The notes under the pieces are model-generated. The model ran no database searches, was not told where the DNA came from, and was given only the letters and a program-made list of their open reading frames with translations. This document shows positions 8,847 through 58,581 of a DNA stretch of 58,581 nucleotides, piece by piece (the first letter of the stretch is position 1; each line of letters starts with the position of its first letter). Made by a program: the position numbers and the translations under genes. Origin of the DNA: a virus (Duplodnaviria; Heunggongvirae; Uroviricota; Caudoviricetes). Location: positions 64,001-122,581 of IMG/VR virus record IMGVR_UViG_3300033993_002218; one strand, written 5' to 3'.

Positions 8847-9140
8847 TTAAGCATAGAGTGGTTCTATATCATCAGGCATATCTTCAGGGTTTTCTAACTC
8901 AACTGGAAAGAAGCATGGATGGACTTCTTCATCTATCAGATAGAAAGAGTTTTTATATAAGTCTTCTGGTTCAAATGCACGATACTTATCTGCCAATTTA
9001 CAGAGTTCTTGGTCGTATAAGTGCCCATCTGGTAATTCATCAAAGGTAAAAGGAATCTCGTTGATGAAGTACATTTTCACTATCATACTACCTTCATTAT
9101 ACCAGCAATATGCGTGAGTGATTTTATACTTTAAAGACAT
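8847..9140 (-). CDS. Conserved cyanophage hypothetical protein
   Basis: MSLKYKITHAYCWY...KMYFINEIPFTFDEL resembles a recurrent cyanomyophage ORF. Start placed at the Met at 9140, downstream of ATAAATA (~9162-9168). Confidence 0.6.
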   Translation of the reverse strand: MSLKYKITHAYCWYNEGSMIVKMYFINEIPFTFDELPDGHLYDQELCKLADKYRAFEPEDLYKNSFYLIDEEVHPCFFPVELENPEDMPDDIEPLYA

Positions 9141-9164
9141 AGGAGTTGTTCCCATATCTTATAT

Positions 9165-9878
9165 TTATTTTAACCATTTGCGAATAGTATTGTCACTAAC
9201 ACCATATTTTTTCCCAACGGCAACATAAGAACTTTCTTGTAACTCTATAAGTAATTGTTCTATCGGTGGTCTTTCAACTCTTCTTTGAGATTTTGAATGA
9301 CATAAAAAGCAAAGACCAGTTTTGGATTTTGTTTTTAACTCAACTTCACAAGAAGAGCAATTATAAACTTTTTTAATTTTTTCTATTTGATTTTTATTTT
9401 TTAATGTTTGTGAATTTTTACTTCTTTTATTTTTACCACGATATGTTGGTGTTTTAGCGTGACAATTTGGGCATAAGATTTTTAAATTTTCTAATATATT
9501 GTTATAATGGTCTCCGTCAATATGATCTAGTTCTAATGGTATTGGTTCACCTAACCACTCACTTAGACCACAACATTCACATTTATATTCCTTTATTCCT
9601 TCACTTATTAATCTTTTTCTCAGTTTATTTGAACTATACCCATAATCTTTAACCAATATCTCATCTAATGGAATAGTGTTAAAGTTATGTGTTTTTCCCT
9701 TTAAATGACCTTGACCAGTAAAGTGGGAAGTATCTATTGCATATAGTTTTTCAAATTTTTTAAATACTCTATAATTGCCTCCTCTTGGGGAGACGCCAAG
9801 TTTAGTAAGTGCCTGAGCAATAGAATAACTTCCTTGAACAGCGTTTTTAAATTCTTCTATTGTATATGAATGTTTCAT
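9165..9878 (-). CDS. Free-standing HNH (homing) endonuclease
   Basis: CECC...ELDHIDGDHYNN..ENLKILCPNCH HNH/Zn motif, a second Cys cluster (CSSC...CFLC) and a C-terminal HTH (VAVGKKYGVSDNTIRKWL). Confidence 0.88.
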   Translation of the reverse strand: MKHSYTIEEFKNAVQGSYSIAQALTKLGVSPRGGNYRVFKKFEKLYAIDTSHFTGQGHLKGKTHNFNTIPLDEILVKDYGYSSNKLRKRLISEGIKEYKCECCGLSEWLGEPIPLELDHIDGDHYNNILENLKILCPNCHAKTPTYRGKNKRSKNSQTLKNKNQIEKIKKVYNCSSCEVELKTKSKTGLCFLCHSKSQRRVERPPIEQLLIELQESSYVAVGKKYGVSDNTIRKWLK

Positions 9879-9900
9879 ACTGATAAACGCATTATATAGT

Positions 9901-9908
9901 TATTTATA
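9901..9908 (-). promoter_or_regulatory. T4-type late promoter TATAAATA for the HNH gene
   Basis: Exact TATAAATA on the minus strand, 22 nt before the ATG, embedded in a hairpin (9882-9918). Confidence 0.75.
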
Positions 9909-9924
9909 TAAGTTTATCGGTTCA

Positions 9925-10196
9925 TACCCGTGAGTGGATTCGAACCACCGCTTGAGAGATTTTCTTACCACTACAACTTTCGTTGCCTTTTCAGTTTGTG
10001 GTCTGGACTATACCTTCACCATACCTTTCGGTTTAGGTGTTCCCCGTCTAGTCTCTACACCTTCATCTTGCGATGCTTGGCTCGGTATTGCCATTTTACA
10101 GGTTTCACCGAATTTGAGGAATTACACTCATAAGGTTTCCCAAATGAGGCTCAATTTTACATAAGTCTCTTGCCTCTTCCGCTGGGCTACACGGGC
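9925..10196 (-). tRNA. trnL(UAA): tRNA-Leu(UAA), intron-containing (exons 10196-10163 and 9963-9925; CCA not encoded)
   Basis: Joined exons give a 73-nt cloverleaf: acceptor GCCCGTG/CACGGGT, anticodon arm AGAGA-CT-TAA-AA-TCTCT, T arm GGTGG-TTCGAAT-CCACT, discriminator A. Confidence 0.92.
9964..10162 (-). ncRNA. Group I self-splicing intron (199 nt, probably IC3) in the tRNA-Leu anticodon
   Basis: Inserted after U34 and ends in G. P1 CUU/GAG; P AAATTCGGTGAAA; Q AATACCGAGC; R GTGTAGAGACTAGA; S AAGGTATAGTCC; P7 GACTA/TAGTC. Same site and motif layout as the cyanobacterial/plastid trnL(UAA) intron. Confidence 0.92.
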
Positions 10197-10208: not shown

Positions 10209-10237
10209 ATTATAACTCAGAAAGTCATAGTGGTCAA
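10209..10237 (-). promoter_or_regulatory. Sigma70-type promoter for tRNA-Leu
   Basis: TTGACC-17 nt-TATAAT, immediately after the 3' end of the CAU tRNA. Confidence 0.7.
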
Positions 10238-10238
10238 G

Positions 10239-10312
10239 TGCAGGTTGTGGGGATCGAACCCACCTTAGCCGAATTATGAGTTCGGTGCTTTCGACCAGAG
10301 AGCTAAACCTGC
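10239..10312 (-). tRNA. tRNA with CAU anticodon (elongator Met or lysidine-modified Ile2)
   Basis: Acceptor GCAGGTT/AACCTGC, anticodon arm CCGAA-CT-CAT-AA-TTCGG, T arm GTGGG-TTCGATC-CCCAC. G1-C72 is paired, so it is not an initiator tRNA. Confidence 0.9.
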
Positions 10313-10341: not shown

Positions 10342-10429
10342 TACCAGCCGAGGGTATCGAACCCTCCCAAAGGCCCTAATCTGGGGCAAATCGCTTATAA
10401 GGCGACTCTGAACACCTGTTCTGACTGGC
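10342..10429 (-). tRNA. Non-canonical tRNA with UAU (Ile) anticodon, long variable arm and minimal D arm
   Basis: Acceptor GCCAGTC/GGCTGGT, anticodon arm GTCGC-CT-TAT-AA-GCGAT, extra arm GCCC-CAGATTA-GGGC, T arm GAGGG-TTCGATA-CCCTC, D arm GAAC-AGGT-GTTC; 88 nt. Confidence 0.75.
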
Positions 10430-10444
10430 GTAAAATCCAGATCA

Positions 10445-10473
10445 ATTATAGAGGATCTGGAACTCTCTGTCAA
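10445..10473 (-). promoter_or_regulatory. Consensus sigma70 promoter for the tRNA cluster
   Basis: TTGACA-17 nt-TATAAT. The -10 sits in the loop of TCCAGATC/GATCTGGA (10436-10461). Confidence 0.8.
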
Positions 10474-40488: not shown

Positions 40489-40539
40489 GGTGCGTTGCTT
40501 CCCAAATGGTACTTCCGTCGCGTGTGCGATCAACGTACT
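40489..40539 (-). ncRNA. Glutamine riboswitch (glnA RNA motif)
   Basis: CGUUG(P1)-A-UCGC-ACAC-GCGA(P2)-C-GGAAGUA-CCA-UU-UGG(P3)-GAAG-CAACG(P1'): a three-way junction with E-loop matching the glnA motif, upstream of DUF4278. Confidence 0.82.
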
Positions 40540-57169: not shown

Positions 57170-57325
57170 TTATTGGTGCTTTTGTAAATATGCAACCAAA
57201 TCTTTAAGGTAGTCAGATGCCTTATCCCAATCCCCATTAAACCTATCATTAAGTTCTTGATAAATTTTTTCTGCATTTTCAGGTGCTAGATTGGTTGCCT
57301 CAATAAATCCTTCTTTAGTAATCAT
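57170..57325 (-). CDS. Small hypothetical protein, 51 aa
   Basis: Manual translation: MITKEGFIEATNLAPENAEKIYQELNDRFNGDWDKASDYLKDLVAYLQKHQ. Confidence 0.5.
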   Translation of the reverse strand: MITKEGFIEATNLAPENAEKIYQELNDRFNGDWDKASDYLKDLVAYLQKHQ

Positions 57326-57944
57326 AATGTTTTAATGTTTTTTCTGTAAGGTTAATAATTTCTACTATGGGCAATTCTATCACATAACACTCCGTATATC
57401 CACTATCCGTGGTCTCAAAATCAATTTTATAATTTTGATATTTTTGGTGGATGAATTTTTCAAGATGATGGACTTGATAGTGAATTCCTTTCCATATCTT
57501 AATAACACTATGCAATTTATTTTTGGTGTGGTTTGCTAATTTATTGAAACTTCTACCAACCTTATAAACCAATTTACCTTCAAGATAGACAATAACCAAA
57601 TACAAATAATCAGTATCAAAATATCTTTCTTTCCAAGGATTTTGGTAGTTATTTCCTTGTAGTTTTTCGCCATATTTTTTGACTCTTTCATCAGTTTCTT
57701 TGGTTAATCCTTTATTCCAAACTTTTTGACCTGTTTTCTTTCCTTTATTCCAAGGTTCTTTACCAACCTGCCATTCAGAAAAGTTTCTTGTTACACCAAT
57801 TGTTTTAAGATACTTATATACGGAAACTCTTGGTATGTTTAGTTGTCTTCCAATTTCGTGGGAGGATAAACCAGACAAATACATTTGTTTCCAAATCTCC
57901 CTATCCTTATCAGTATATTTTATATTCATTTGTGGTCTGCTCAC
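57315..57944 (-). CDS. Putative free-standing homing endonuclease (HTH + NUMOD-like repeats + GIY-YIG/T5orf172-like domain)
   Basis: HTH GLSSHEIGRQLNIPRVSVYKYL; PWNKGKK and VWNKGLTK repeats; YLYLV...YKVGRS...LEKFIH...GYTECY; GTG start. Confidence 0.65.
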   Translation of the reverse strand: MSRPQMNIKYTDKDREIWKQMYLSGLSSHEIGRQLNIPRVSVYKYLKTIGVTRNFSEWQVGKEPWNKGKKTGQKVWNKGLTKETDERVKKYGEKLQGNNYQNPWKERYFDTDYLYLVIVYLEGKLVYKVGRSFNKLANHTKNKLHSVIKIWKGIHYQVHHLEKFIHQKYQNYKIDFETTDSGYTECYVIELPIVEIINLTEKTLKHYDY

Positions 57945-58012: not shown

Positions 58013-58581
58013 TCAACCGATAGAAGGAGCAGTTAGAGCAACCGAAGTTGTTTCTGCTGCAGCCAAATCTAAAGGAAAATTATGTGCATTTCTCTCGTGC
58101 ATAACTTCCATACCCAACCCAGATTTGTTCAATATGTCCGCCCAAGTAGGAATTACCCGGTTTTGACTATCCAGAATACTCTGATTGAAATTTAGTCCGT
58201 TGAGGTTGAATGCCATAGTGCTTACGCCTAGAGCAGTAAACCAGATGCCCACAACGGGCCAAGCGGCGAGGAAGAAGTGAAGTGAACGAGAATTATTGAA
58301 CGAAGCATATTGGAAAATGAGTCGTCCAAAGTAACCGTGAGCCAATTGTCCAAAAGTTTCCTTAAGGGTTGGACTATATCTTCACCTATTAAAGGTGCTG
58401 GGCGCTCTTGCCTGTTATTAAGGGAACTGTATCCCTCAGGTAGTCTCTGAACCTTTCCTAGATGTATCTAGGACTTGGATGCTGATTGCCATATCCATAA
58501 AGGACTTAGGTTTCCAGCAGTTCACCCAGTTTAACGTGACCCGCTCTGTCAAGCCACGATGTTATAAGTCTCTTCTTCTTG
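58013..58581 (-). CDS. psbA: Photosystem II D1 protein, 3' part, split by an intron (exons >58581-58552 and 58342-58013)
   Basis: [10 protein letters not shown] | [29 protein letters not shown]...[23 protein letters not shown]. The tracked ORF's TTG 'Met' is actually the intron 3' end. Confidence 0.97.
58343..58551 (-). ncRNA. Group I self-splicing intron (209 nt) in psbA between Ala250 and Ala251
   Basis: 5' exon ends in U and the intron ends in G. P1 CGUGGCU/GGUCACG with U-G at the splice site; P10 GAGC/GCUC; P AACTGCTGGAAA; Q AATCAGC; R GTTCAGAGACTA; S AAGATATAGTCC. Removal restores the D1 frame. Confidence 0.95.

Follow-up and report, generated by a model that had tools for sequence, protein, structure and literature searches.

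An intron-split tRNA-Leu(UAA) gene followed by a free-standing HNH gene in a T4-like cyanophage: a candidate case of collaborative homing at a tRNA

Collaborative homing has been described for the psbA group I intron of cyanophage S-PM2 and F-CphI, a free-standing endonuclease (Zeng, Bonocora and Shub 2009, via PMC6083498), with both cleavage and immunity demonstrated. Here we describe a locus of comparable layout in the window, by which we mean the whole stretch of 58,581 nucleotides (nt) analysed, corresponding to the final 58.6 kb of a 122.6-kb IMG/VR virus record (IMGVR_UViG_3300033993_002218). The best matches of the window are T4-like Synechococcus phages, and in it a tRNA-Leu(UAA) gene is split by a group I intron lacking an open reading frame (ORF) and is followed by a gene for an HNH homing endonuclease. 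S-PM2 psbA/F-CphI is the closest precedent: both loci come from T4-like cyanophages, in both a conserved gene contains an ORF-less group I intron and has a free-standing endonuclease gene immediately downstream on the same strand, and the proposed logic is the same. In spite of these similarities there are clear differences: (i) the host gene in the window is a tRNA, not a protein gene; (ii) F-CphI is an Endo VII-motif enzyme, whereas the window nuclease is a HegA-like HNH protein for which we infer cleavage and immunity; and (iii) the window system has, in addition, sister enzymes that are encoded in introns at this very site.

Other described systems share some of these traits. BF23 HegA has the same order of HNH, zinc ribbon and helix-turn-helix as the window HNH, and both genes lie just downstream of a tRNA; however, the free-standing endonucleases in the tRNA clusters of T5, BF23 and T4 occur there without an intron. 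I-Ssp6803I is a PD-(D/E)XK enzyme. Unlike the window HNH, it is intron-encoded, bacterial and associated with a different tRNA, lying in a cyanobacterial tRNA-fMet intron (Bonocora and Shub 2001, as cited in PMC3984707). T4 SegB targets tRNA genes, but it is a GIY-YIG enzyme that recognises the T-loop (PMC2330249), whereas the window enzyme is an HNH. In the T4 MobE/nrdB system (PMC2790892), a free-standing HNH mobilises a neighbouring intron unable to move alone, which is what we propose for the window, although there the intron keeps a dead endonuclease gene (defunct I-TevIII) and the host gene is protein-coding.

According to a 2014 review, all phage introns known at that time lay in protein-coding genes, although phages have many tRNA genes (PMC3984707), a 2018 preprint on Lak phages called phage tRNA introns 'enigmatic' and previously unreported (10.1101/356790), and the Williams preprint covers bacterial genomes only. 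The earlier note on this DNA, made from the sequence alone, knew of no prior description of collaborative homing at a tRNA intron; in the searchable literature we likewise found none, nor any of a cyanophage tRNA that contains a group I intron. We consider the locus to be a two-part selfish system at the tRNA-Leu(UAA) of a T4-like cyanophage, made up of an ORF-less intron at the classic U34/A35 site and a HegA-like HNH cassette.

The split tRNA-Leu(UAA) gene and the HNH cassette

The tRNA-Leu(UAA) gene spans 10196-9925 on the minus strand (ARAGORN with intron search). The features of the locus are:

10209..10237, minus strand: sigma-70-type promoter-like site, TTGACC-17-TATAAT, 11/12 matches, ending 12 nt before the tRNA-Leu 5' end (consensus match only)
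10163..10196, minus strand: tRNA-Leu(UAA) exon 1, 34 nt, ending ...GACUU (ARAGORN -i; direct reading)
9964..10162, minus strand: ORF-less group I intron, 199 nt (Rfam RF00028, ARAGORN -i, covariation)
9925..9963, minus strand: tRNA-Leu(UAA) exon 2, 39 nt, with 5-nt variable loop and A73 (ARAGORN -i)
9171..9920, minus strand: HNH cassette, an insertion of ~750 base pairs relative to empty alleles, 5 nt after the tRNA (junctions against L118, L097, L110 and L223; L135 scar; L-numbers denote the loci compared)
9882..9918, minus strand: RNA hairpin GAUAAAC.../...GUUUAUC, ending 4 nt before the HNH AUG and enclosing TATAAATA (fold -14.5 kcal/mol, z -3.1)
9901..9908, minus strand: T4-type late-promoter-like motif TATAAATA (motif match)
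9165..9878, minus strand: free-standing HNH homing-endonuclease gene, 237 amino acids (aa) (phrog_10822, HegA identity, AlphaFold2 model, dN/dS)

The intron interrupts the gene between nucleotides 34 and 35 (CUU/AAAA; anticodon UAA; ARAGORN -i), and joining the exons gives a 73-nt sequence that ARAGORN folds as a cloverleaf. In a local search the Rfam model Intron_gpI (RF00028) aligned in full (1-253) at 10172-9982 with 62.6 bits, against a gathering score of 50 (E 1.8e-15). The hallmarks of group I introns are present: the U at -1 of exon 1 (CUU) pairs with intron GAG in P1 as U-1.G, and the intron ends in ...GGUAAG, its terminal G directly preceding AAAAUC. Across 40 related loci, 38 of the 70 consensus pairs are altered on both sides, which supports the intron-split architecture, and the acceptor and anticodon stems covary across exon backgrounds. 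No minus-strand ORF of at least 40 aa lies within the intron. By its model score and end bases the intron belongs to group I, and it would be expected to self-splice; the ORF-less group I intron that the earlier note had placed in the anticodon loop is confirmed to the base. Neither a whole-window Rfam scan at the gathering score nor default ARAGORN detected the split tRNA, which was found only by the local Rfam search and ARAGORN -i. This bona fide group I intron of cyanophage tRNA-Leu is common in uncultured phages and overlooked by default annotation tools, and phage tRNA counts and codon-usage analyses that are based on default tRNA finders will overlook such genes.

In its insertion at CUU/AAAA, U-1, terminal G, small ORF-less ribozyme and retained anticodon stem, the window intron resembles the classic anticodon-loop intron of tRNA-Leu(UAA) ('Leu.3Ug' type), but it resides in a phage tRNA of an unusual 73-nt short-arm form. 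With its 5-nt variable loop this tRNA does not have the long variable arm of bacterial type II tRNAs, and its leucine identity is based on the anticodon and A73 only; the same intron was also found in long-arm tRNA-Leu(UAA) genes. Short cyanophage tRNA-Leu(UAA) genes, of 73-75 nt with a 5-nt variable loop, were seen in more than 100 IMG/VR contigs (L168-L273), whereas bacterial leucine tRNAs have a long arm.

The HNH gene begins 46 nt past the tRNA 3' end on the same strand, exactly as the earlier note had it (ATG at 9878, tRNA end at 9925). Its product aligns with phrog_10822 along the entire sequence (E 5.5e-58), shares 38% identity with BF23 HegA (F-TflIV) over its full length and 58% with the intron-encoded L004 ORF, and by sequence is a homing endonuclease of the T5/BF23 HegA (F-TflIV) kind. 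The catalytic His, Asn and His expected of a His-Me finger (beta-beta-alpha-metal) core and its Cys4 zinc site are present: residues H119, N131, N138, C100, C103, C136 and C139 are invariant across 31 homologues, and H140 is invariant in a three-sequence alignment of the window HNH, L004 and BF23 HegA; the Pfam HNH model scores only 15.1 bits, under its cut-off of 21.4. From N to C terminus, the predicted modules are a helical module, an HNH core with four cysteines, a linker, a zinc ribbon and a C-terminal helix-turn-helix. The AlphaFold2 model (mean pLDDT 83) shows four modules, the C-terminal one with three helices, joined by two low-confidence linkers, a predicted beads-on-a-string layout such as would be expected of a nuclease reading a long asymmetric site. 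A Foldseek search of this model against the PDB gave no significant full-length match and only weak matches to the HNH core (McrA, Cap5, I-HmuI), and I-HmuI also came up in a sequence search of the PDB, at E 0.39. The ORF is intact in all ten close relatives and is under purifying selection (dN/dS 0.07-0.27, dS 0.3-1.2).

Comparison with otherwise collinear relatives defines the cassette as a presence/absence polymorphism at a single intergenic site. The nearest relative, L118, as well as L097 and L110, has the same tRNA and intron with an empty HNH site, and the empty junction (L118, L097, L110, L223) reads ...TATGAA|AATAAATATAAG; in occupied sites, which are those of the window, L007, L012 and L014, it reads ...TATGAA|C...HNH...GGTTA|AAATAAATATAAG. 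The cassette can also be lost by deletion, since the intron-bearing, HNH-less allele of L135 retains a 7-nt scar, CTGGTTA, made up of the first and last bases of the cassette. At its 3' end, the last HNH codons rebuild the AAATAAATA motif ahead of the 102-aa downstream gene.

Eight loci conserve the hairpin in front of the HNH gene; in L014 it has a compensatory change (GGTAAAC/GTTTACC). For T4 I-TevI, I-TevII, I-TevIII and SegB and for Aeh1 MobE, read-through transcripts are untranslatable, while late transcripts that start inside a hairpin are translated (PMC2988022), and the layout of hairpin and late promoter in the window matches this paradigm, by analogy with which the HNH gene may be regulated in the same way. 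The late promoter that the earlier note had assigned to the HNH gene was found as a TATAAATA motif at 9908-9901, a motif match and no more than that: the window has no more copies of TATAAATA than chance would give. Each of the 7 is on the coding strand, and in the four cases checked an ORF begins 10 to 65 nt further downstream. For an I-TevI-style operator, comparison of the HNH promoter region with the spliced anticodon arm gave a weak AT-rich resemblance by eye only, which we do not count.

Distribution and mobility of the intron and the HNH gene

IMG/VR was searched with the HNH protein (80 loci kept of 172), with the intron core pattern (81 loci) and with intronless exon patterns, both short-arm (106 loci) and long-arm (at least 120 loci). 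After de-duplication the tRNA-Leu(UAA) alleles were distributed as follows:

intron present, HNH present: 12 loci
intron present, HNH absent: 23 loci
intron absent, HNH present: 1 locus
intron absent, HNH absent: 128 loci

Thus, the HNH gene stands behind 12 of the 35 intron-bearing alleles and 1 of the 129 intronless ones (odds ratio 67, Fisher p 1.8e-8), and the survey of relatives that the earlier note had proposed shows that the two elements are clearly not independently distributed. The alleles with HNH comprise 11 distinct mature-tRNA sequences, both short-arm (73-75 nt) and canonical long-arm (83-85 nt). The exact mature tRNA of the window was found in three states, empty (L223, L228), with intron only (L097, L110, L118) and with intron and HNH (window, L122); the fourth state, HNH without intron, is absent for this sequence among the surveyed loci. 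Moreover, two HNH lineages, a long one of 237 aa and a short one of ~154 aa, are found at one and the same place after intron-bearing alleles, also within a single exon class (L147 vs L106). The identity of the HNH proteins to that of the window is flat, at 81-87%, compared with 49-83% for the neighbouring gene. No uninterrupted RGACTTAAAATCY was found within the assembled 122.6 kb of the window's own genome.

The sister loci L029 and L030 have identical HNH proteins, and their DNA is 97.5% identical from the T-arm onward; in L029, however, the tRNA-Leu(UAA) has no intron and its anticodon arm is altered, GAATTTAAAATTC, whereas L030 has a 185-nt intron and keeps the canonical arm GACTT/AAAATC. 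The two differ in the segment from the D-loop to the variable arm, a mosaic of the kind that a conversion tract would leave, and as a sequence comparison the pair is suggestive of collaborative homing.

The intron itself is mobile between exon backgrounds, because it is distributed as a mosaic across them. The exon sequence of the window carries, at different loci, three intron variants differing mainly in P9, and each of the three also occurs in other exon backgrounds, including long-arm tRNA-Leu. Between the window and L097, the tRNA with its intron forms an island of ~100% identity within flanks of 32-90% identity; against L008, L009 and L010, the intron is 92-94% identical and exon 2 only 72%; and in the L105 contig the match to the window is confined to the intron. 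The classic tRNA-Leu intron, by contrast, is regarded as largely immobile. The exact core pattern found at 81 IMG/VR contigs was recovered in only 3 of ~185,000 prokaryote species genomes, all three metagenome-assembled (two Saccharibacteria and one Omnitrophota); since none of them is cyanobacterial, a host origin of the intron is without support. An identical P3-P6 core pattern interrupts capsid-like protein genes in other viral contigs (L092, L100, L126, L141 and L166), so that the intron lineage is not confined to tRNA genes. As regards the joint spread of intron and HNH that the earlier note had proposed, the strong association and the mobility of the intron speak for it, but most intron-bearing alleles have no HNH, and therefore the intron must also persist and recombine without it.

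Relatives of the enzyme are found inside introns as well. The huge phage LR756511 has a long-arm tRNA-Leu(UAA) in which a 700-nt version of the window intron is inserted at the identical position; the L6 loop of this version holds a 154-aa HNH 58% identical to that of the window, with a stop codon overlapping the P6/P7 junction; the related huge phage LR756501 has an ORF-less form 79% identical to the window intron. In a maximum-likelihood tree the LR756511 enzyme is sister to the clade of the window (support 92/94), and enzymes of the family became intron-encoded at least 3 times. Because this sister enzyme is encoded in the same intron at the same insertion site, the intronless anticodon region is the likely target of the family. 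An intron-encoded homing enzyme would have to act on intronless alleles around the insertion site, which makes this relative, on sequence grounds, probably the best indirect pointer to what the window enzyme cuts.

In the wider family, HNH genes follow many different tRNAs (Asp, Gln, His, Trp and others) at a distance of 13-134 nt. Family members, or fragments of them, were also seen behind Thr(UGU), Leu(GAG) and Met tRNAs of cyanophages (L150, L252, L016, L314), and hence the family uses several tRNA-flank sites in these phages. In a separate group of contigs, from IMG/VR 3300045988 (L076, L079, L081, L083 and L085), we found tRNAs whose anticodon, UUA, would decode the stop codon UAA; a 736-nt intron interrupts them and encodes a short HNH of the same family. 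Read with table 11, HNH genes of this metagenome (e.g. L052) contain in-frame stops, which suggests that the phages have recoded a stop codon.

Collaborative homing and rival explanations

Taking these observations together, we give roughly even chances to collaborative homing, in which intronless alleles are cut by the HNH and the intron shields the allele that carries it. During a mixed infection, the enzyme would nick or cut intronless tRNA-Leu(UAA) in or near the DNA of the anticodon loop, around the conserved GACTT/AAAATC, which is the only sequence common to all exon backgrounds. Repair would always copy the donor intron, and a conversion tract running ~85 nt further would copy the HNH cassette too; in the donor genome the intron would split the target and so protect the allele. 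If the intron is always copied and the cassette sometimes, alleles with both elements and alleles with the intron only are expected, but not alleles with HNH only, and this matches the three states found as well as the excess of intron-only alleles. With regard to expression, the sigma-70-like promoter in front of the tRNA-Leu probably drives its transcription, the hairpin probably keeps the HNH from being translated from read-through RNA, and the late TATAAATA promoter inside the hairpin would yield a translatable late transcript, as for T4 I-TevI, SegB and Aeh1 MobE. The genomic pattern offers a concrete candidate route for the horizontal transfer of an ORF-less tRNA intron.

The interpretation put forward in the earlier note, that the HNH cuts intronless alleles while the intron immunises its own, is upheld in part: the non-independent distribution, the discrete cassette, the mobile intron and the intron-encoded sister agree with it, but three relatives of the HNH sit beside intronless canonical alleles. 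These three, and several other findings, weigh against collaborative homing. The L269 HNH (short form, 46% identity) lies directly behind an intronless tRNA-Leu(UAA) with canonical GACTTAAAATC; the L016 HNH (65% identity) coexists with an intronless canonical GACTTAAAATC allele, 124 nt downstream; and the L024 HNH coexists with an intronless tRNA-Leu(UAA) that keeps canonical GACTTAAAATC. Since most members of the family stand behind other tRNAs, a generic specificity for tRNA flanks, similar to that of SegB, is possible. Exon 2, the 39 nt between intron and HNH, is only 72% identical in some pairs in which the intron is 92-94% and the HNH 81-89% identical, and, being less similar than both flanking elements, it is not what a single, simple co-conversion would leave. 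The closely related HNHs of the window and L007 are accompanied by different intron variants, so that the HNH and intron phylogenies are not congruent and transfers were not always joint. Finally, because the loci are phylogenetically related and were gathered by sequence patterns, the Fisher p is optimistic and overstates their independence.

The main rival to collaborative homing, which we consider a serious though less probable explanation, is hitch-hiking ('trans homing') without immunity: the HNH would cut HNH-less alleles near its own insertion point (the T-arm, the acceptor 3' end or the downstream promoter), insertion of the cassette would destroy its site, and the intron ~85 nt away would be dragged along by co-conversion. 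Tight linkage would then be enough to make HNH-only recombinants rare, and the place of the family behind so many different tRNAs, the recognition of a T-loop motif of tRNA genes by T4 SegB (PMC2330249) and the mobilisation in trans of the neighbouring nrdB intron by T4 MobE (PMC2790892) all lend themselves to such a scenario, as does the tolerance of intronless canonical alleles by the HNH relatives in L269, L016 and L024. Furthermore, the tRNA and intron of the window are identical to those of the HNH-less L097, which leaves no protective polymorphism inside them. On the other hand, empty alleles such as that of L223 share exon 2 and a near-identical downstream flank with intron-only alleles, and if cutting took place there both should be invaded, yet the HNH is found at 12/35 versus 1/129. 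Intron-only alleles, too, would be open to attack and ought to be converted, but no intron-bearing state is commoner, and the sister enzyme, being intron-encoded, must target the region of intron insertion.

That the two elements have no functional link at all seems unlikely to us. The intron would then be an older resident of some cyanophage tRNA-Leu(UAA) genes where the HNH landed later, and descent plus the recombination of linked blocks would account for the association: a nested history from empty to intron-only to both also leaves the HNH-only class empty, the HNH dS of 0.3-1.2 denotes long residence, and the loci are not independent samples. However, such a history sits poorly with HNH-bearing alleles in 11 distinct mature-tRNA sequences of both arm types, with two separate HNH lineages each paired with intron-bearing alleles, with the intron-encoded relatives at the same site and with an HNH identity that stays flat at 81-87% while that of the neighbouring gene ranges over 49-83%, showing that the history of the HNH is uncoupled from its flanks. 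It is very improbable, in our view, that the HNH is kept mainly for the benefit of the phage, through marker exclusion in mixed infections or regulatory DNA binding, with its place beside the intron incidental. Strong purifying selection over deep synonymous divergence would suit such a role, and by rebuilding the promoter of its neighbour the cassette would favour its own retention (cf. embedded promoters, PMC2988022); but the HNH is dispensable, the nearest relatives lacking the gene, and marker exclusion by cutting a rival tRNA-Leu is mechanistically the same act as homing.

Extending collaborative homing beyond this locus, it is possible, though we advance it as a tentative idea, that phage tRNA-Leu(UAA) loci keep side by side all the stages by which, on the Bonocora-Shub route, an intron becomes mobile, with a HegA-like HNH behind an intronless tRNA, behind an ORF-less intron (as in the window) and in the L6 loop (as in LR756511 and others), and that the partnership of HNH and intron actively spreads a supposedly ancient and immobile tRNA-Leu intron between very different phage tRNA genes, possibly into bacteria. 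Such a natural series, in which the nuclease stands next to an intronless gene, next to an intron and inside one, has a bearing on the assembly of mobile introns.

Neighbouring genes and other features of the window

Read along the minus strand, the locus and its neighbours comprise, in order, a Phd-like ORF, an 88-nt tRNA-like gene (UAU), tRNA-Met, the split tRNA-Leu, the HNH gene, a 102-aa gene and a tail-fibre gene. S-SKS1 has the same order without intron and without HNH, and S-SRM01 has the same order without intron and an unrelated HNH elsewhere. The S-SRM01 HNH was considered as a case of HNH without intron and ruled out: it belongs to phrog_2255, has no significant similarity to the window HNH and lies at a different site. 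The neighbouring features are:

10445..10473, minus strand: consensus sigma-70-like promoter of the 88-nt tRNA-like gene, TTGACA-17-TATAAT, 12/12 matches (consensus match)
10342..10429, minus strand: tRNA-like gene, 88 nt, anticodon UAU, long extra arm (ARAGORN, Rfam)
10238..10312, minus strand: tRNA-Met(CAU), upstream neighbour in the conserved tRNA trio (tRNA and Rfam scans)
8847..9155, minus strand: downstream gene, 102 aa, phrog_4134, with AAATAAATA promoter-like motif (ORF list and PHROG match)

The 88-nt tRNA-like gene has a 6-base-pair anticodon stem and is called tRNA-Ile(tat) by ARAGORN, while its top Rfam match is tRNA-Sec, at 31 bits and under the cut-off; it is kept at the same position in S-SRM01, S-SKS1 and several IMG/VR cyanophage contigs. 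Further away, a glutamine riboswitch of the glnA-leader type lies at 40489-40537 on the minus strand (43.1 bits, over the gathering score). At the contig end, a second group I intron interrupts psbA (58350-58576, minus strand, 88.5 bits); next to it comes the D1 C-terminal exon of psbA (58013-58345, minus strand) and, just after psbA, an endonuclease-like ORF of 209 aa (57315-57944, minus strand; phrog_681, E 9e-13), with TATAAATA 10 nt upstream. This pair of psbA intron and endonuclease-like ORF resembles the published S-PM2 psbA/F-CphI layout.

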